Shown: positions 16,200 through 53,170 of the stretch, one piece after another
Layout of the letters: the number at the start of each line of letters is the position of its first letter
How positions within the stretch are numbered: the first letter of the stretch is position 1
Assembly: GCA_951406725.2 (NCBI GenBank)
Contig: OX597830.1
Location: forward strand, 35,216,001 to 35,280,000
Source: Octopus vulgaris
Lineage: Eukaryota
DNA length: 64,000 bases
Direction of reading: 5' to 3'
Translations under genes and position numbers: made by a program
Notes under the pieces: model-generated
What the model saw: the letters and a program-made list of their open reading frames with translations, nothing else
Databases searched by the model: none
Told to the model about the DNA's origin: nothing

Positions 16200-18372
16200 T
16201 TATTTTCTCTTTATCACAGGTTTTGTTTGAGCTCCTGGAGTCTTGCATGCGTAGCTGGCTTACTACCTGCAGCCTACGGTACCATGCTATTCGTTCTTTT
16301 TATCTATCTAATACTATCCTGATCATTCTAGCTGTGCCAAGGAGGAAAACCATTTTGTAACAGTTCTACTGGGCAATCTATACCAATTTCTTTTATATTC
16401 TCCCTTATGCCTTCTGATTCTATTCCCAAGGACCCAACAACAATTGGCATTATCTTCACCTTGTTCATTTTCCTCAGCCGGGCTATTTCGTAACTAATTG
16501 TATCTAGCTAATTATTATTGTTATCATTATAGAGGTCGCACATTATACGATATTGTGAAGTTGTTGATTGAAGATATTGTGTCTACCGGGGGTTTGTACT
16601 GTTTGTCGAGTCACAACAAGGATCTCAAGCAGACAGTACTCTACGCCATATGCGTTTAGTTTCAAGTAATGCCGACTTTTGCAATACACCTGGATTGTAG
16701 GGTATTTCTGAAATTTTCAGATTTTATTTTTAGACTGGGTGGTATTGAACCCTATGCTCTGATGACAAAAGTGTTGACCTTTATGTTTTTTTTTCTCGTA
16801 GCTGCTACATCTTATCGATCTCAATTCTCAGGTTTCCATATTTATCAACCTCTTCTTTTTCTTTCATGATTATATGTTGATCTCCTAGTACAATCACGTC
16901 AATTATTGAGCACTCCTGTTTCTCCCTACTAAAGGTTACTATACCCGGTCTTCGGTGTTCTAATAGCTTGTCTGTCTGGAAGTCAGGTTCCTAGATGATT
17001 TTGCCTCCCCCTTTTCGATCATTTTCTTTTTCCGGTATATGTTGGTACCAAATACCCGTAACCTCATATCCATACTTACAGCATATTAGCCAGTGGAGGT
17101 TTTGGGCTACCTTGTCATGTCTACGCCTGTACTCTTTCTGCGCAAGATGTTCACAAACACTAACAATGTGAGTCACGCTTTTGACTCCCTCCCACACATT
17201 CTGCAGAAGTCCGTTGCAATTGTGTGGTATATATTCTTTTTCATTTCACTGAGTTGGTATTCAATGCCTGGTCCTGGGTAGCGATGATTAAGCTTACAGT
17301 ATTATTTTTAAAGTCAATCTTGTTAAGCCACCTCTATGATGCTTCCTGGTCTTTTAATATGTTGGTTTCACGGTGGAACTGGTCATGTAATTCCATGCGG
17401 AATAGAGTTTCTTCTCTCTCTTTGGCTGTTCTTGATCGGAATTCATGAGCACTCTCAAGTCCATTTTTGTTAAATCCTTCTGCATTACCAACATACTGTA
17501 ACAGGTCTTGTTTGCTGTTTACCAAATATTCTGCCCTGTTTTCTTTTTAACTGCGGTTGTACTCCCGTAATCTAATCAGCCTACGTCCACCTTTACGCCT
17601 CTTCATGTAGAACCTGTGTACATTCTTCTTAGGCACAATACATTATCTTTGTCTTTCGGGTAATGCGATAGAGTTGGTTAATCTCTGCTTGTGTCCATCT
17701 CAGAATAGGTGCATTATAGCAGAATACAGTAACTGCCCATGTGTTAATGCAGTCACAAGATTCCTTGAGTCGAGTTTTGATTCCAAGAGAAGTTTAAGGC
17801 GTTTGAAATATGCAGTGATGACTGGATTTTGGAAACAATCCACATGTATGGAATAGCTGAGAATATGTGTGCACTGATTAAGAACAGCATGCCTAGTTGG
17901 AAAGCTTGTCTTTCTTGTAACAACCAGCACTTAGCCGAGGTAACAAGCAAAAGAGATATCTTCTAAGGAGGCTTTTGTTCACCTCTGTTATTTGTTATAG
18001 CCTTGATCCCACTTTCTGTAGTCCTACACGAAGTCAACGCATACTATGAGCTGAGAATGTATGAACCTCGTTTCAACTACCTTCTCTTCATGGATGCTTT
18101 AAAATTGCTCGCAAAAACAAAGCCTGAGATGGACAGGCAGGTTGAGACTGTGCAAATGTGCAGCAAGGATATAGAGATGGAATTCGGTATCTCGAAGTTT
18201 GCAGTGTTTACTTTGAAGCGGGGGAAAATGAGTAAAGAGAAAATTATAGGGACTTAGAATTGCCAAGCGGAGTGAGAATGAAAGACCCCAATTATAACGG
18301 GTACAAGTACCTTGAGATCCTAGAGCTGGACAATATCTTGAATAAAAAAAATGAAAGACAAGGTCATCACTG

Positions 18373-18514: not shown

Positions 18515-21013
18515 CTATGTTTGACTTTTGCTTTATATTTGTACAAGTTGGCTCCAAGTCTCACCCAGAGACCTCAAGAGACAACAGGGTTGGAAGTTCA
18601 TGTTGTTGTTATGCCTAGTGTGCCATATATTTGGGGGTGGGGATGTTGTACTAATGAATGTCTAAAAAAAATTTTTAAAAAAAAAAGGGGTTTTTTTTTT
18701 TTTTTACCGAAAATTATGTTTGTTTTAAACCTTGAGATTACATAGAGAGTATTTTGCGTAGGATATGAGCAGTTCCCATGAGCACTATCTTTTGAACTTC
18801 TGCCATTTTTGGGTTTCCTGGTATCTGAGTTAGGTAGCTATCAGCCCCTTTTGCTATCATTCCCAGGGCACCTATGACAACAGGTATTGTTTTAGTCTTC
18901 AGCTTCCACATTTTGCTGATTTCTATTTCAAGATCTTTATATTTGCTCAGTTTTTGGTAGGTCTTGACAGATACGTTTATATCGATTGGGACAGTCATAT
19001 CAATGAGGAGGCATGTTCTTTGTTTGAAGTTTTTCAATATGATGTCTGGCCTATTTGCATCTATCTTCCTGTCAGTTTGAATGGTGAAGTTCCAGAGGAG
19101 TGAGATGTGGTCATTTTCAAGCACTGGGGGTGGTTTGTGTTCCCACCAGTTTTTTTCATGGGGCAAATCCAGGTTTTTACAGATTACCCAGTGAATATAT
19201 TGTGCAGCTCTATCGTGCCTGTTGAGATACTCTGTAGGCGCTAGAAGACTGCACTTGGAGACCACATGGTCAATGGTTTCATTTTGTTGCTTGCATACAC
19301 GACACGTTGGACTGCTTCTGATCTTTAATATGTTGACCTGGTAGTTTCTTGTTGGTAGGCATTGATCTTGAGCTGCTATGATAAACCCCTCTGTTTCAGA
19401 TTTTAAGCCAGAGGCCATTAGCCATTGATGGGTCAGGGCTTTGTCGATATCTGCATTATTCGCTCTCTTTGGGTATTTGCCATAGAGAGGTTTTTCTTGC
19501 CATTTATTATTCAGAATATCTAAGGCCGCAGTTTTGGCACGGGTTTTCATGCGCCTAGCTTTTTCTGTGCTTGTTTCTTGTATATCTATCTCTAATTCCG
19601 AAATTGGTTGTATTCGGAATTCACTTAGATATTCCTTTGCCTGTTTTGTGACTGAGTATGATGCTTTCTTGTTTTCATGTTTTGAGACAAGTTTTAGCAT
19701 CCAGTCCTCAGAGTTTTTCAGGTAGGTGTCTAGGCCAATTGTAGCAATCTTCATTGTTATTGCCAGTTGCAAAAGACCACGGCCTCCCTCTTTTCTTGGC
19801 AGATAGAGTCGTTCTGTATCTGCCTTAGGGTGGTGCATTCTATGCATTGTCAACAGTTTCCTTATTTTTCTGTCGAGCTGACATATTTCAGTAATTGAGC
19901 AGTTAACAATATTGAAACTGTAAGTCACGACTGGTATAGCTAATGCATTGATTGCTTCGATCCTGTTTCTTGCATTCAGCTCTGTCTTGAGTATTGCTCT
20001 CACTCTTCGATAGCATTCTCTCCTGATCCTTTCCTTCATCTCTGAATGCCTTATTCCGTTCCCTTCAATTATCCCTAGGTACTTGTAGCTCTCCGCTGGG
20101 TCTAGTTCTTTTATGACATTCTGTTGGTCAAGGTTAACGTTAGATGTTTCTGTCATTTTTCCTTTGATAAAGGTAGCCTTTGCACATTTATCGAGGCCGA
20201 ATTGCATTCTGATGTCGTCACTGAATTGTTTGACTATCGCTAGTAAGCCCTTGAGTTGTTGATCATTTTTTGCAAAAAGCTTTAAATCATCCATGTAAAC
20301 GAGATGATTTATATTTTTATCAAACATTTTATACCCGTACTGCGCATCATTGAGCAGCTTTGAGAGAGGTATTAAGGATAAACAAAAGAGGAGTGGTGAC
20401 AGTGAGTCACCCTGGAAAATGCCACACGAAATTTTTACATCACCAGCATTTAGGGATTCACTGTCACTGTTCAGAGTTAGTGTGGTTCTCCATGATCTCA
20501 TACTTACAGTCAAGAAGTTTCGCAGAGTTGGTGCTATCTTATACATTTCAAGGCATTTCCTAATCCAGCTATGTGGTAGGCTATCAAAAGCCTTTTTATA
20601 GTCTATCCAGGCTATTGATAAGTTTTTGTGTCGTTTGTGACAATCTTCTAAGATCATCTTATTGATGAGTAGTTGGTCTTTACAGCCGTAGGATCCACGT
20701 TTACATCCTTTCTGTTCATTAGGGAATATGCTGCTGTCTGTTAAAAAACTATAGGTATATTCCGTCAGGACAGATGTTAGTGTTTTGTACATAGTTGTTA
20801 AGCAGGTTATGGGTCTATAGTTTTTTGGTTCATTTGTTTCTTCACTTTTTGGAAGCAGGAATGTTAACCCATTAACTAGCCAAGGAGGCATCCTACTAGG
20901 GTGTTGCAAAACATCATTGTACAGTTCTGTTAGAAGTTCATGGCTCTCTGGGAAGGCATTCAGCCAGAAGTTAGGAATTTTATCCTTTCCTGGAGACTTC
21001 CATTTGCTTGACC
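18515..21013 (-). mobile_element. Young 5'-truncated R4/Dong-like RLE non-LTR retrotransposon, with 3' UTR at 18515-18737
   Basis: Uninterrupted ORF plus 3' UTR, bounded on both sides by (TTA)n. Confidence 0.95.
18738..21013 (-). CDS. RT + CCHC zinc knuckle + restriction-like endonuclease polyprotein (N-terminally truncated; the frame stays open to the TAA tract)
   Basis: KSPGKDKIPNFW, NYRPITCL, EQKG, WIDYKKAFDS, GIFQGDSLSP, YMDDLK, CRVC...ETIDHVVSKC, RHD, RPDI...IDMTVP...KLSKYKDL. Confidence 0.93.
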
Positions 21014-21065
<52 letters not shown>

Positions 21066-21205
21066 GGCGGCAAGCTGGCAGAATCGTTAGCATGCGGGCA
21101 AAATCCTTAGCAGTATTTACCTCATCTTTATGTTCTGAATTCAAATTTCGCTGAGGTCTACTTTGCCTTTCGTCCATTCAGGGTCGATGAAATAAATACC
21201 AGTTA
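21066..21205 (+). mobile_element. SINE family B copy abutting the (TTA)n tract
   Basis: GGCGGCAAGCTGGCAGAA head plus Nin-like core. Confidence 0.8.
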
Positions 21206-26544: not shown

Positions 26545-27585
26545 ATGACAATTGTCACGATAGACTCGGCCGACAGATGGACTCGTCCCACACGCGACAG
26601 CAGCCGTTCGGCATAAACCCACAGGTCCGAAATGGATGGACACCGCACGAGTGCAGAGCGGTTTCATCGCTTTTACCGCATCTCGGGCAGCTCGGTCCGG
26701 TGTATCTCGAACCGTGCCTGTAGAGCTTATCCTGAACAGGTAATGCTTTTCGATAGCACTGCCAGTCCAGGGATCTCTTCTGATTTTCCAATGGTCCCGG
26801 CCCAAAAGTTGCCCTGAATAGGCGGATTAGGTATTCCTCGTCGACGCCCAGATTCTACCCTAGAAAATCGTAGCACCTCCCTTCCACTAATCCTCTATAA
26901 AACGCCTTTGTTGTAATAAAGTCGCACAAGTTTGGTCCCGGACGGCAGAGTTGCTTGAGAGCAACGCGACACTCGCGGTGCCATTCGCGTTCAGCTTCCA
27001 GTAACCGGACCCTGCTTATGTGTCTTATCTAAGTCAAGTGTACAAATCAGAAATTTGTGGTCTGTGTAGCTGACTATGTGGAAATATGGACCACCTACAC
27101 TATCCTTATCCACTGTCCTACAGAATACTGTATCTAAATACGATCTGGACGATCCGATGCGGTGGCTCCATGTCCACATTGGCATATTTGGGTGGTCCAA
27201 TCGACACCTTTCAGACAATTGGAAATACCTGAGCAAGTCTTTGAGGCATTTGCATCCCTTCCTATTACTACCTCTTCCCACGTAGTCTAGATGCGTGACC
27301 AGGGTAGCATTCCAATTTCCCACTAAAAGTAAAGGTCGAGACGTTTCCAGGAAAACCTCTAGACGTCGAAAGAAATATGGCCGGCCAGTTAAGGACGGTG
27401 CATAAACTGTTATCAGTCTAAAAGTACACTCATTGCTGCCATCGACATCCAAGACGACCAACCTACCCTCCGGGTCTAGGAAAATAGCTTTTAATTTGAG
27501 GTGCAGACTCTTTCGAAAAAGCACCACGGGACCTCCTTCACCCATTCTCGGCAGACACGGAGAAAAATAAATGTCGAAATAGATA
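26545..27585 (-). mobile_element. Internally deleted L1/Tx1-like LINE: APE endonuclease joined to the C-terminal zinc-finger region, RT missing
   Basis: GRLVVLDV, VYAP, LLVGNWNA, WTW, SYLD, TDH, GYWKLN (APE), then directly WQCYRKALPV...CPRCGKSDETALH (zf-RVT type). Confidence 0.85.
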
Positions 27586-28344
27586 GATAAATAGACAGAC
27601 AGATAGATGTGTACATACATACATACATACGCACATACATACATACATACATACATACATACATACATACATACATACATACATACATACATACATACAT
27701 AGGTGTTCTTTAATAGCAAACCCGCGAGGGCAAACTGACATGTGATCCCAACTTTCCAAGCTATATCATTCCCATTTTTGTTGTTTTATTTTGTTTCGAT
27801 TTGATTTTTTTTTTTTTTGCTGTTGGTTATCTGAGAGTACATTCCATAATGTGATCTGACTTCTGCTAACATCAGAGCGGGATTTGTTAGCGTCTTCTCG
27901 AGAACAGTGCAAAGTAGATGACTCTTTATTGGATCTCTCATTATCACCTATATATTTTCATGAACAGTCATTTGCTGTCAAATCATAAAAGCACATAAAG
28001 ATATAGTCGTGATTCTGTTGTCATACCAATCACCCTAATAACGACGCGGCCCTTTAACGTTTTAATCTTTACGATTCAACAAGCAATGATATACTCAGTC
28101 ACTGCTTAAAGCCATCGTTTTAATCATATATTGATTAATTAACTCTAATTGAACTTTTGTTTTAAACTTTTTCGGTTTCATTGCGTTTATTTACATATTT
28201 GATTCTTTGTTGTATTTCTATTGTATGATTAATTACATTCACACATACAGACACGTATACACACTGGGATGTACACATATATGTGCAGTTATGTTTGTAT
28301 ATGTGTATATAATTTAGCTCTCCTAGTCTCTTTTCCTTTTCCAG

Positions 28345-29735: not shown

Positions 29736-29784
<49 letters not shown>

Positions 29785-29849
29785 TTGGCAGGTGTCTTCT
29801 TCTATAGCCTCGGTCCGACCAAAGTTTTGTGAGTGGAAAAGTTGGAGGA

Positions 29850-30720
29850 CGGGTACTTCCTGGGAAACTCCAAGGCCGGGTACTTCCTGTCCGATCGGGT
29901 AGGACATCCTGGAAAAGCCCGTAGAGGCGAGGTAGCATTTTCTGGAAAAGTCCGAGGATGAGTATTTCCGGGAAATGTCCCAGGAGGAGTACGTCCTGGA
30001 AAAGTCCGAAGAGTGGGGGGAATTCCGCATAGGGACACTCCTGGAAAACCTCGACGATGGGTACTTCCTGGGAAAGTCCGAGAAGGGGGTAGAACTTCCT
30101 GGAAAAGTCTGAGGATGGGTACTCCTGGGAGAGTCCGAGGATGGGAGGTATTATTTCCTAGAAATGTCCAGAGGGTGACTTCCGGGAAAAGACCGAGGAG
30201 GCGGATTCCTGGAAAGACTGAGGAGGGTAGTTCATGGAAAATTTCGAGGTTCGGGAGGTATGACTTCCTGGAATAGTCCGAGGAGTGGAGGTAGGACTTC
30301 CTGGAAAAGTTCTACGATGGAGGGGGTAGGACTTCCTGGAAAAGTCCGATTAGGGGGACTTCCAAAGAAAGTCCGTAGAGAGGGAGGGGAGGAAGGACTT
30401 CTTGGAAATGATCATGGAGGGCGACTTCCATGAAAATTCCAAGGCGGGTGGAGCGAGGAGCAGAAGAACTTCTTTGAAAATCTGAGGAGAGGGACTGCCT
30501 GAAAAATTCCAAAGAGTGGGGGGTTGAGTGGGGAAGGGCACCAAGGAGTTTCTGGAAATGTCCCAGTGATCGCCCTGGAAACTTCACCTCCCCCTCAACT
30601 CCTCAAAGTTGAGAGGAGGGGACAAAGGAACTTTCCCGGAAATCTTTCCTCCCATTCCTACCATTCTTCCCCCTCAACACACCACATTGGAATTTTCCAG
30701 GAAGTCACCATCCCCCTTCT
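29850..30720. repeat. GC-rich degenerate array of about 25 palindromic units GGACTTCCTGGAAAAGTCC with variable purine-rich spacers
   Basis: Directly visible; the last units (about 30580-30720) are inverted and C-rich. Confidence 0.9.
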
Positions 30721-31184
30721 TCAGGTTCAAATTTGGCTGCAGGATCAGCACCTTTTTTGAAAAGAGTATTTGGAAGTCGATTACGTCGAATCTAGTACTT
30801 GACTGGTACTTACTTTATCGACCTTGAATGGATGAAAGATAAAATCGACCTCTGTGGAACTTGAGCTCAGAACGGCGAAATGCCTTTAATCAATTTCTCC
30901 TGTTAACTGGTCTTACATTTCACAATGTTCATTCGTATAATGACAATCCTTTCTAGTATAATCACACGGCCTGACATTTGGGGTGGTGTGGAACTAATCG
31001 ATTACATCGACCACAACGCATAACAGGTAATTATTTCTTCGATTTCGAAAGGTTCAAAGGCAAACTCGACTTCAGCGAAATTTGAAATCATAATTTTATG
31101 AGAGACGAATTGCCATTAAGAAATTAGACGATTACCGCATAAATGCACGCGCGCGCACACACACGCAAACACACTTATATATAT

Positions 31185-31372
31185 TTCTTTACTACCCACA
31201 AGGGGCTAGACATAGAGGGGACAAACAAGGACAGACAAAGGGATTAAGTCGATTACATCGACCCAGTGCGAAACTGGTACTTTATTTATCGACCCCGAGA
31301 GGATGAAAGGCAAAGTCGACCTCGGCGGAATTTGAACTCAGAACGTAACGACAGACTAAATACGGCTACGCA
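31185..31372 (-). mobile_element. SINE family B lacking its 5' head (fused to the Helitron end)
   Basis: Matches 2654-2850. Confidence 0.85.
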
Positions 31373-31862
31373 GTATCGCCCGGCGTTGCTCGGGTTTGTA
31401 AGGGAAATAACTATATAAGCATTTTTAGAGAGTTACTTCCCATATATAATAGCAAAAACATGCATAAAAATGGAATAAAAATGATGGTAATTTTTTTTTA
31501 AATGGTAGACTCATCGTAGACATTTTTAGAGAGTTACTTCCCTTATATAATAGCAAACAAATGCATTAAAAATGGAAGAAAAATGATGGTAATTTTTTTT
31601 TTAAATCGTAGACTCATCGTAGACATTTTTAGAGAGTTACTTCCCTTATATAATAGCAAAAAAATGCATTAAAAATGGAAAAAAATTTTATTTAAAATCG
31701 TAGACTCATCGTAGATGCGCGCTAATACCCAGAAGGGCTCGATATGAATCATGACTATAAGATACCCGCTTTTGGTTAAACTGCACCGCAAAATATGGGA
31801 GTAGTTAGGAATCTAAATCGTAGGAAACAGACACCACACAACTTCTCTTTTATATATATAGA
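31370..31862 (-). mobile_element. Non-autonomous Helitron with about 3 internal tandem copies of a ~98-bp unit
   Basis: Minus strand starts A|TCTATATATATAAAAG and ends with the hairpin CCCGAGCAACGCCGGG then CGATACTG (terminal CTAG lost); unit ATTTTTAGAGAGTTACTTCCC...GTAGACTCATCGTAGA repeated. Confidence 0.75.
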
Positions 31863-38959: not shown

Positions 38960-41041
38960 TCTTCTTCTTTCAAATTTGCTTACATTTCTTGCCGAGTGTC
39001 TTCCCGACTCCTAGGGCAAATAAACTCATAGTATATATTGGTAGGCCATTAAGCTAAACTAAATTAAATTAAATTAAAAGTTCGTTCATTTTTTTTTTTT
39101 AAGTTAAAAAAACTATTACAACATGGGCAGTAATAGTTCTCACATCGACAATGCTCTTCTCAATACGTGTGATGTAACAGTTATGACAATTTTTTGCACT
39201 TCTTGCAGGGACGGTAAGCCAGGGATCATTCTCATATAATTTTCGGTTCCCTTCTCGATCATTCCTAGTGCTCCTACGATCACTGGTATTGTAACCGCCT
39301 TGAGATGCCACATTTTCTCAATTTCAATGAGCAGGTCTTTATATTTTCTGAGCTTGTCAAACTCTTTCGCCGAGATATTATGATCACAGGGGATGCTCAT
39401 GTCGATCAATAAGCAAACTTTATTGTTTTTGTCTTTCACAACAATATCCGGTTTATTGGCTTTGATGGTTCGTTCTGTATGTACTGGGAAGTCCCACAGA
39501 ATGGATACATTTTCTCCTTCAGTTACAGCTTCAGGGTGGTGATTATACCACTTGTCGGCAGTTTTGATATTGTAATGCCGACTTATTAGCCAGTGTAGAT
39601 ATTGGCCAACTCTGTCATGTCTTAATTTATACTCCACTGGTGCTAAGACTTTACATCCAGAGATTAGGTGGTCCACTGTTTCAATCATGTCATTGCAGAA
39701 TCGGCATTTTGGGTCTGCTCCATTTTTCATTACATTGGCCTGTTAGTTCCGGGTTAATAGGCTTTGATCTTGAGCAGCCAGGATGAAACCTTCGCTTTCT
39801 GCTTTTAGCCCTGAGATCCGTAGCCACTGATGGGTTTGCTTCAGGTCAACATCAACATATTTGCCGTGCAGAGGTTTCTCCTCCCACCTACCAGCCAATT
39901 GCTCGTGCGCTTTTTTCGTTGCCATTTTTTCACCTTCTTTGCAACAATAGTTGCCGTACTTCCCTTGGGTTGTTCAGTTTGGGTATCCTGCAAGAGATCA
40001 ATAGCAAATTTTTTGCTTTCCGTTATGATAGAATGAAGCTTCTTTCGTCTCTCGTGATTTTCCACGAGCTTTAGCATCCAGTCATTCGTTATTTCAAGAT
40101 ATTTGGCCAGTCCAATTGTGGTTGTTTTGTAAGCTAGTTCAAATTGGATCAGACCTCGACCTCCTTGGGCTCTGGGAAGGTAAAGGCGATCTACGTCTGC
40201 CTTTGGGCGGTGCATCCTATTACAACTCAGCAGCTTGCGTATTTTCTTGTCTATATTCTTTACTTCACTCATATTCCAGTTCAACCCATTGTAGTTATAA
40301 GTAACAACTGGAACTGCTAAGGAATTTATAGCTAACACCTTGTTACGTGCATTTAGTTCAGATTTCAGGACTGCTCGAACTCTCCTATAACATTCCTTCC
40401 TGATCTTCTCTTTCATGCTTGCATGCTGAATACCAGAGCCTTCATTTATCCCTAAATATTTGTATGTTTTGTTCTTGCTCAAGCTCTCTTATGACTGTGT
40501 CAACATCTAACACGACTGAATTTGTGGTCTTCACTTTCCCTTTCTGGAAAGTGGCCTTGGCACACTTCTCAAGCCCAAACTCCATCCCGATGTCATCGGT
40601 GAATGCTTTCACAGTGCGCAATAGGCCTTCAAGTTCATTATTGTCTTTACCATAGAGTTTTAAGTCATCCATATAAAATAGAAGGCTTATTTTTTATTGG
40701 CAATTTTATACCCATACCCTGTTCTGTTTAATTCACTTGTAAGGGGTATTAGGGATATGCAGAATATTAAAGGTGACAGTAAGTCACCTTGAAAAATTCC
40801 ACAGTTGATGTTTATATATTCTGAGGCAAGTACTCCATTAGAGTGGTATAATTGGAGATTCGTATTCCACAACGACATATTGTGCTTCAGGAAGCTTGAA
40901 ACCACAGGGGAAATTTTGAAGATGTCCAGCGATCTCAAGATCCATGGATGCGGTATACTGTCGAAGGCCTTTTTATAGTCAATCCATGCGGAGCTGAGAT
41001 TTCTGCGCTTGTTGTGACAGTTCTCAAGGATCATACGATTA

Positions 41042-41042
<1 letters not shown>
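38960..41042 (-). mobile_element. Second-family R4/Dong-like RLE retrotransposon, 5'-truncated and frameshifted
   Basis: AWIDYKKAFDSIPH, GIFQGDLLSP, MDDLKLY, CRFC...ETVDHLISGC, RHD, KPDI...IDMSIP...KYKDL spread over several frames; (TTA)n on both sides. Confidence 0.93.
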
Positions 41043-41113
<71 letters not shown>

Positions 41114-42602: not shown

Positions 42603-42916
42603 ATGTTACATTACTCGGTAGTCAAGATAAAACTCTGAGTTTCAGATGCCGAAGTGGAAATCCACAACACCATCTCTTCGGTTATCTGGCTATTTGAAAA
42701 CGTTATGAAAAAATACCGTTAAAAATGAAGGGAAATTACTCTGTTATAACTCTGCTTTGCCTGCGTACTTATACATCGCTCGCATTTTTCGTCATAAAAA
42801 TTATATAAAAATACATAAAAATAAATAAAAATATATAAAAATATATAAAATCTTCTTGGGACATAACACAGAAAGCATGTTCTATCCGTTTTCTTTAGGG
42901 GACCAAAAACGTAACA

Positions 42917-43410
42917 ATCATAACATACAAAAAACACAAGAAGAAAACAGCTGTTCATGCAGGAATAAAGAATTGTGCCCGCTAAATGGAGCTTGCATGT
43001 CCAAGACCATCATATATGAAGCTACCGTAAACTCTATAACCACTAAAGACACCGTTTCGACGAAGAAATACGTGGGCCTGACAGAGGGTAATTTCAAGGC
43101 CAGGTTCAATAACCACACTTTGAGCTTTAGGCACTGGAACAAAAGAAAAGCGACACAATTATCCAATCATATTTGGTCTTTAAGAGATAAAGGTGTCGAT
43201 TATAACATACAATGGAAGATTTTGGCCAGATGTAAGCCCTACACTAACGGCAGCGGAAGGTGCGGTTTATGCGACATGGAGAGATGGCTTATCTGGAAAA
43301 GCAGCTTAGACCCTACCACATGTCTAAATACAAGGACAGAGCTTTTCGGATCATGCCCACATGTGACTAAATTTCTGTTACGTTTTTGGTCCCCTAAAGA
43401 AAACGGATAG
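42917..43410 (+). CDS. GIY-YIG endonuclease domain of a Penelope-like element (fragment, no RT)
   Basis: CSC...CPLNGAC, IIY...KYVGLTEGNFKARFNNH, CGLCDMERWLI, LNTRTELFGSCPH; the first ~20 aa of the predicted ORF come from the inverted arm. Confidence 0.88.
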
Positions 43411-52369: not shown

Positions 52370-53170
52370 GTTCTAAGACAGACTATTAACAGAGATATTA
52401 AGAACATAGTCATGCTAGTATGGAAAGCAAATTAAGTCTAAGAATGATCATAGTCTTTCACTATTGCGAAAGACTGTGATCAAACATAAACTATGACAGA
52501 AATAAAACGACAATGGAAAGGGAACAATTATTGTCTATAGTATGCAATGACCGAAACCAAACCATGAACAACGATAATCATTTAAAGTAAACTATGTAAA
52601 GTAAACAGAGAAAGGAAATGATTTAAGGTAGACTATTATCAAAACGAAAGTCTTATCAAAAGTAGAATACGTTCAAAGGTAGATTATGATTGAGCAGAAT
52701 ATGATCAAATGCCAAATATGATCAATGACAGACTACCATCAAAGTCAATTCAGACTAAGCTCAGTGGCTTAACAAAGATGAAAGGCAGAATATAATCGAA
52801 GGCTAACTTTTGATCAAGGCTATGATGAAATGCAGAATATAAACAAAGACAGACTATGATCTTAAGCATGCTATGATTAAAAGAGACTATGATGAAAGAG
52901 AAATTATAATTAAAAGCAGACTATGATGAAAGGGAGTCTCTAATCTAAAGGTGACTTTTGTCGAAGGCAGACTGTGGTCAAAAGGAAACTATGATCAAAG
53001 GGAGACTATGATTAAAGGATAACTATACACGAAGGCAGACTATTATCATAGGGAGATTATGATAAAATGAAAGCTATGATTAATGACAAATTACCATGAG
53101 ATCAGACTGTAATCAACGGCAAAGCATGATCAAAGTAGTCTGTGATCGAGTAGTCTATGATCAAAAGTAT
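52370..53170. repeat. Degenerate 17-bp minisatellite, consensus about GGCAGACTATGATCAAA
   Basis: Periodic GACTATGATCAAA variants, most regular at 52620-53165. Confidence 0.85.

Follow-up and report, generated by a model that had tools for sequence, protein, structure and literature searches.

What is the GC-rich array of palindromic units that stands near the middle of the window analysed here, a 64,000-nt stretch of the 2.8-Gb genome of Octopus vulgaris (G000:C17:35216001-35280000)? The array spans positions ~29834-30725, and a first-pass annotation had interpreted it as a homotypic STAT/Rel binding cluster grown from a minisatellite, possibly an enhancer, or else as the subterminal array of a foldback element. 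The results presented below make it probable that the array represents a solo copy, now eroded, of a satellite and was copied into this position during break repair, that the family was shaped by binding, and that this copy is now drifting. In our best reading the array is not a dedicated enhancer, a foldback end or a CRISPR array.

The array has a GC content of 0.52 in a window of 0.34, in agreement with its description as a GC-rich island, and contains 22 forward and two inverted recognisable units plus a few partial ones (~24 overall, where ~25 had been estimated). In the forward block (29834..30563, plus strand) ~22 units of the core ACTTCCTGGAAANNTCC with a GAGG tail are separated by purine-rich spacers; the unit centres are 25-72 nt apart and the spacing is no multiple of 3. 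This block is followed by an orientation switch (30564..30626), a local inverted repeat with a C-rich and then a G-rich arm, which appears to be a junction of the type that fold-back template switching leaves. The inverted block (30627..30725, minus strand), which agrees with what had been noted for the last units, has C-rich spacers and two units, their cores at 30627-30643 and 30689-30705. The usual core contains four A residues (GGACTT-CCTGGAA-AAGTCC) instead of the three originally read, a form with one exact match and three near-matches genome-wide. The hairpin expected from self-complementarity is present but weak (-3.1 kcal/mol with DNA parameters). Because a contig of an independent run (X3) spans 29795-30434 without a gap and with three differences, the array is no assembly artefact. 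A coding repeat was rejected (spacings that are not multiples of 3, no Pfam match), as was a structured RNA: Rfam gave no match inside the array, and the weak matches obtained for the window fell on adjoining microsatellites. A search for the strict G-quadruplex pattern in the array was negative as well. The supposed CRISPR-like layout did not hold up either, the units being unlike one another, their spacing 25-84 nt, the spacers related purine-rich words, and no cas or CRISPR family being found.

The sole perfect core (30331..30347, plus strand) holds three predicted sites. A GAS site, TTCCTGGAA, at 30333-30341 matches the GAS consensus TTCCNGGAA as given in the available part of PMC5985295. 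It is overlapped at 30337-30347 by TGGAAAAGTCC, the element that is repeated eight times in the NFAT5 reporter described in the available part of PMC12107062, and which matches the NFAT5/TonE consensus TGGAAANNYNY (PMC6401628, available part). The minus strand of 30331-30338 reads CAGGAAGT, an ETS-like word one base off the ETS word CCGGAAGT (PMC12111515, available part). GGAA is common to all these motifs (STAT, NFAT5, Rel and ETS). Compared with 300 dinucleotide shuffles of the array, TTCN3GAA was present 14 times (shuffle mean 0.69, maximum 4), TTCCNGGAA nine times (0.10), TGGAAANNYNY ten times (0.28) and ETS-like MGGAAGT nine times (0.55), and nine of the ten occurrences of TTCCNGGAA in the window fall inside the array (chance mean 0.45). 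Recounting reproduced exactly the 14 TTC-N3-GAA and three TTC-N4-GAA sites counted by eye, and two further words named at that time, GGGGAATTCC at 30017 and GGGGACTTCC at 30354, are both present. The middle triplet had been described as widely varying; its variation is not free, since it is CTG in 5 of the 14 sites, and most others are one-step decay from CTG. The proposed NF-kB/Rel site cluster was not recovered, since GGRRNNYYCC is not enriched in the array (6 versus a shuffle mean of 2.4, maximum 8); this word fits the GT subtype and the C5 satellite described below. For the Rel-family half of the unit the best reading is an NFAT5/TonE element, which had escaped the first-pass annotation, and 55% of 1037 family units match TGGAAANNYNY. 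What is new is an immune/stress block in which a GAS site overlaps an exact NFAT5 element and an ETS-like site lies on the opposite strand. Because the unit spells these overlapping predicted sites, the array likely binds immune and stress regulators of the STAT, NFAT5/Rel and ETS types.

Exons for STAT, NFAT5-like, Rel and NF-kB p100/p105 factors were located in the genome at G000:C17:64.06 Mb, C6:94.95 Mb, C11:36.13 Mb and C7:114.86 Mb, respectively. NFAT5 is the best PDB match of the NFAT5-like exon. The STAT exon was found through Pfam STAT_linker in a genome search and has no PDB sequence match; a genome search with Pfam STAT_bind gave no match, and its control was silent too. Stat-1 and NF-kB appear in a pathway legend in the available part of a study of octopus haemocytes (PMC4199593).

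Copies of the array, for which a genome search had been advised, turned out to be numerous. The array matched 76 places on many contigs with 64-80% identity, and the core ACTTCCTGGAAANNTCC occurs exactly 764 times genome-wide versus 4 times for the reversed control; by hand count, the first 100 core matches represent 47 places. When the left half of the core was left free, 750 matches were obtained versus 12 for the control. The repeat family is present at more than 100 places in the genome. We examined 69 arrays and 40 further regions. The 69 arrays have a median of 13 units and 471 bp, and 19 of them contain both orientations; solo arrays have 2-50 units and lie on many chromosomes between unrelated flanks. 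Core positions 13-14 define subtypes, with GT in the majority in 34 arrays, AG in 27, including the array studied here, and AT in 8; the exact AG core has 53 occurrences in the genome. In some regions three to four separate arrays are clustered within 70-300 kb (G000:C3:15.14-15.21 Mb; C23:31.7-32.0 Mb; C15:47.69-47.84 Mb), and at L018 1255-2400 (G000:C9:118.97 Mb) an array with ~55 bp of flank is found a second time, inverted and with 98% identity, on the other side of a TA microsatellite. Scans of viral and metagenome sequences yielded 2 and 13 stretches, respectively, with GGAA/TTCC tandem words of the TTCCTGGAAA type in unrelated contigs. A viral origin is unsupported because these stretches share only the low-complexity core, and not the tail or spacers; such similar words in unrelated contigs count against novelty. 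No account of this repeat was found in the literature, in a search outside which subscription papers, repeat databases and supplements lay.

The unit is also part of a larger satellite. TRF identified a regular 52-bp unit, which forms multi-kb arrays and one half of which corresponds to the core of the array here. The 52-bp consensus of L222 contains ACTTCCGGGAAAT and ACTTCCTGGAAAGTTCCGAGG, and its unit combines a perfect GAS half, TTCCGGGAA, with a window-type core with GAGG tail. Conservation is also high for the GAGG tail and for the GGTCGAAA part of the 52-mer, neither of which matches a nameable motif. At G000:C2:215.454-215.484 Mb lies a 30-kb patchwork in which blocks of 52 and 73 bp alternate with 23-, 13-, 10- and 59-bp blocks in both orientations. 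The 59- and 10-bp blocks look like TEAD and CP2/Grainyhead sites, and the 23-bp block contains AGATCAAAG, which matches a TCF/LEF reporter word in the available part of PMC12107062. At G000:C5:136.39-136.42 Mb, a variant of the 52-bp unit extends with gaps over ~28 kb; in this C5 variant ATGGAAAGTTCC is kept, GAS is lost and GGGGATTTCCC is gained, and TGGAAAGTTCC is present in 94 of 148 anchored units. A U6 snRNA copy (L217 4176-4277, G000:C5:136.388 Mb; 78 bits) directly abuts the start of this 28-kb 52-mer array. Among the 40 further regions, 38 have at least two cores and 22 of these also carry larger-unit or other-block words, seven of the 22 belonging to two long loci. Window-type arrays joined directly to other motif blocks were detected by script in 4 of the 69 arrays (L042, L045, L129 and L143), and further direct joins were seen by eye in L038, L051 and L154. 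The presence of the unit in the larger satellite together with these direct joins indicates that the array here is a stray, spacer-expanded form of one patchwork block.

Two other blocks were observed alongside. L155 and L156 (G000:C6:15.54 Mb and C21:40.55 Mb) contain a dispersed block with a ~43-bp unit and the words GGATTA and TAAGTG, which presumably are homeodomain-like sites; in L042, L051 and L154 it adjoins the STAT/Rel block directly. In the window itself, a 17-bp minisatellite of ~15 copies at 52820-53083 has a unit with GATCAAAGGG, a TCF/LEF reporter word, and probably gives the window a second solo TF-site block.

If the motifs mattered, TTC and GAA had been expected to be more conserved than the rest of the unit. 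Alignment of 1037 units, with at most 3 mismatches across 15 anchored positions and more decayed units dropped, showed that core positions 3-12 are 85-96% conserved, the T at the GAS centre (93%) being kept equally well; anchoring on non-STAT positions only gave the same picture. Decay followed base class (A/T 5-9%, C/G 8-20%). What stood of the expectation was an edge at C/G positions, with 10.1% mismatches at the GAS-critical positions C5/G9 versus 13.2% at C6/G8; bootstrapping the 66 arrays placed the difference between -5.1 and -1.2 points, an interval without 0. This edge is small and confounded by centre-versus-edge position and shared ancestry; the A/T critical positions did not differ significantly from the central T7 (5.7% versus 6.7%). 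The related prediction of a changing centre between kept TTCC and GGAA failed for the 1037 units and held for the 52-mers. The latter retain the textbook TTCC(C/A)GGAA with a variable centre, and this centre differs between arrays: TTCCAGGAA and TTCCCGGAA account for 5/18 and 3/18 of the C2 52-mers, and TTCCCGGAA for 8/26 of those of L211.

Variants that reach one quarter of an array are common at positions 13, 14, CpG 17-18, 0 and 2, and rare at positions 3-12 (7 cases in 57 arrays). Consensus cores differ only at 13-14, the NN of TGGAAANNYNY, in 55 of these 57 arrays, which is partly ascertainment because the arrays were found through the core, so that identical consensus cores were favoured; the five bases upstream of the core form 26 different consensus words. 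A search blind to the left half gave 138 right-anchored units with ~7% mismatches at T7 and G9, 13% at T3, 17% at position C5 and 28% at C6. In a blind AG-type search GAS was intact in 26 of 54 family units and TGGAA in 31, and mismatches affected position C5 in 13 and C6 in 17 of the 54 (hand counts, two random-looking rows of 56 omitted). STAT-breaking variants have spread in L190, L211 and the C5 satellite, and the STAT reading loses weight when the left half is left out of the search. In sum, variation at the level of the family is partly motif-shaped, with a steadier NFAT5/Rel half, and the solo copies are decaying.

The left flank (29784..29837, plus strand) is a fragment of a high-copy repeat that is truncated by the array: other copies go on with different letters at 29837, and its last four bases, TGGA, double as positions 7-10 of that partial unit with which the array starts, a microhomology of 4 nt. 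The right flank (30726..30880) is a different high-copy repeat, for which neither a match to the left flank nor a target-site duplication was seen. Both repeats are presumably SINE-type, and the window is rich in microsatellites and SINE-type repeats. Further to the right (~31370-31862, minus strand) lies a short element of high copy number that starts with TC in the manner of Helitrons and has a terminal hairpin; it contains 2.6 copies of a 103-bp unit (31420-31686), and array L051 has a similar piece upstream. Orthologues of the array are present in runs X5 and X8, which carry other species labels, with ~3% divergence (17/612 and 24/670 bases differ). A 35-bp unit (30290..30324, plus strand) is present in X3 and absent from the orthologous contigs of X5 and X8, which points to a recent unit gain or loss; X5 and X8 each have an additional gap of 22-28 letters. 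In run X4 no long orthologous contig covered the array, a result that does not argue for its absence there. The window yielded no host gene. Its 104 non-repetitive ORFs gave four Pfam matches, all to reverse transcriptases, in a scan that short exons would escape, and the nearest gene that was to be identified did not emerge. The non-LTR retrotransposon reverse transcriptase frames (18738-21086, minus; 39140-41043, minus; 17967-18254, plus) are an open frame of 782 aa, a copy broken into pieces and a fragment. ORFs 42829-43410 (plus) and 26991-27785 (minus), without Pfam match at 1e-3, resemble GIY-YIG (Penelope-type) and APE-type endonuclease fragments.

It is very improbable that one transposon family, whether foldback or Helitron, brought the array here as its protein-binding subterminal array or as an internal VNTR. 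A TC start, a terminal hairpin and a CTAG end between flanking A and T are Helitron hallmarks. Twelve of the 69 arrays do abut non-autonomous Helitron pieces, mostly with the AG subtype, as the array here; Helitron copies start with A/TCAATAATATT (A/TC) and end with a hairpin and CTAG/T. The 2-kb non-autonomous family concerned (L033, L072-L100) looks undescribed; its ends are clean, a SINE piece is embedded in it, and candidate copies number at least 385. However, 28 of the best 30 copies are without an array, arrays meet the Helitron at different internal points, and no Helitron piece lies within 350 bp of the remaining 57 arrays or within ~4 kb of the array here. Because candidate copies are that numerous and nearly all of the best ones arrayless, it was the Helitron that captured the repeat, in the form of one sub-lineage. 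Within the family, units are gained, lost and inverted locally. Helitron cargo was rejected for the array here, no Helitron ends or body being present around it, as was a foldback or other DNA transposon: there are no terminal inverted arms or target-site duplication, ends are not shared between copies, and the inverted units form a short internal block. The transposon-carried reading of this copy is thus largely refuted. An immune or cytokine-responsive enhancer was the main idea of the first-pass annotation. That the repeat was co-opted for a nearby gene, as an enhancer that is under selection and responds to cytokines or osmotic stress, also seems unlikely to us. Such an enhancer would account for the dense intact sites in 0.9 kb (14 GAS, 10 TonE, 9 ETS-like), the persistence of the array under two other species labels and the finding that none of 27 listed differences to the X5 and X8 orthologues falls on TTC or GAA, and Helitron-borne heat-shock elements offer a precedent (PMC6927752, available part). 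However, the 0/27 (with ~8 further differences unlisted) is biased because paralogue depth hides differences at the cores, and the 0/16 of a clean stretch is not significant; only 1-2 of ~24 cores are perfect, and the ORF scan revealed no gene to be served.

A purely neutral quasi-palindromic minisatellite, with TTCC/GGAA units spread by slippage and template switching and motif matches as a by-product of GGAA, deserves more weight, although we consider it doubtful. It fits the decay by base class, the loss of each motif in about half of the units, the orthologues, which in the comparison of X3, X5 and X8 gave no sign of constraint relative to flank, and the look-alike tandem repeats in 15 unrelated contigs. 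It leaves unexplained the canonical sites in neighbouring patchwork blocks (the TCF match was checked), the widespread variants at the free NN positions and the canonical kB decamer gained by the C5 variant, and no compensatory change between the hairpin arms was seen across subfamilies. Of the STAT/Rel cluster grown from a minisatellite, the minisatellite and the STAT/Rel-type motifs stood, and the many copies, near-uniform decay and breakage of about half of the units speak against the remainder. We therefore return to the eroded solo copy. A single microhomology junction, the missing ends and the mixed orientations suggest that it likely arrived by templated insertion at a break, copied from another array, and would then have undergone unit slippage and fold-back inversion, although no empty site was seen. 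Binding of STAT/NFAT5/ETS-type proteins may have given the unit an advantage in amplification or retention, so that the family was likely shaped by regulator binding, and the copy here is now probably drifting. In the cell the copies would serve as weak binding patches or sinks that respond to signals, and as enhancers only occasionally.

A bolder and quite tentative proposal is that the octopus satellite is a natural JAK/STAT, NFAT5 and NF-kB response element whose binding promotes its copying, and which serves as a genome-wide sink and a seed-bed of inducible enhancers. If so, infection or osmotic stress would load factors onto arrays of tens of kb and hundreds of solo copies, and the 52-bp unit would split a merged STAT/Rel site into specialised halves. 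Merged, split and NF-kB-shifted unit arrays coexist in one genome, so that binding and variant spread are directly comparable. The single locus is a decaying stray copy, ordinary debris from a family that is itself unusual, and is not to be mistaken for a dedicated enhancer.

GC-rich strand-asymmetric minisatellites or VNTRs have a variable unit number, a purine-rich strand and local duplication, deletion and inversion. The repeat described here shares all these features, but differs in that one core is common to more than 100 unlinked loci and to a regular 52-bp satellite. Human HSat3, according to the available part of PMC11526998, is a satellite transcription-factor platform with binding shown and, like the repeat here, has GGAA-containing units with motifs for signalling factors, including immune ones. 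HSat3 is megabase pericentromeric pentamer DNA, whereas the octopus repeat has a 21-52-bp unit, overlapping predicted STAT/NFAT5/ETS sites, and a distribution over kb-scale patchworks and short solo copies. If it is bound, the idea of a satellite as transcription-factor platform, drawn from one human repeat, would also cover a modular system of an invertebrate for immune and osmotic signalling. The heat-shock element clusters of Caenorhabditis, for which the available part of PMC6927752 reports binding and gene induction, are likewise dense homotypic stress-factor sites spread by Helitrons, as are the 12 arrays mentioned above; those clusters lie exclusively within Helitrons, whereas most octopus arrays lie outside them, their source is a satellite, and their sites are known from sequence. 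Helitron minisatellites have been proposed as raw material for chromatin function (10.64898/2026.08.08.743475, available part). Synthetic NFAT5, GAS/SIE, NF-kB and TCF reporter arrays share TGGAAAAGTCC, TTCCTGGAA and the TCF word with the octopus blocks (PMC12107062, PMC5985295, PMC6401628, available parts), but the array here is natural and decayed, its motifs overlap in one unit, and no promoter is known for it. The repeat belongs neither with HSat3 nor with the Helitron-borne heat-shock clusters.
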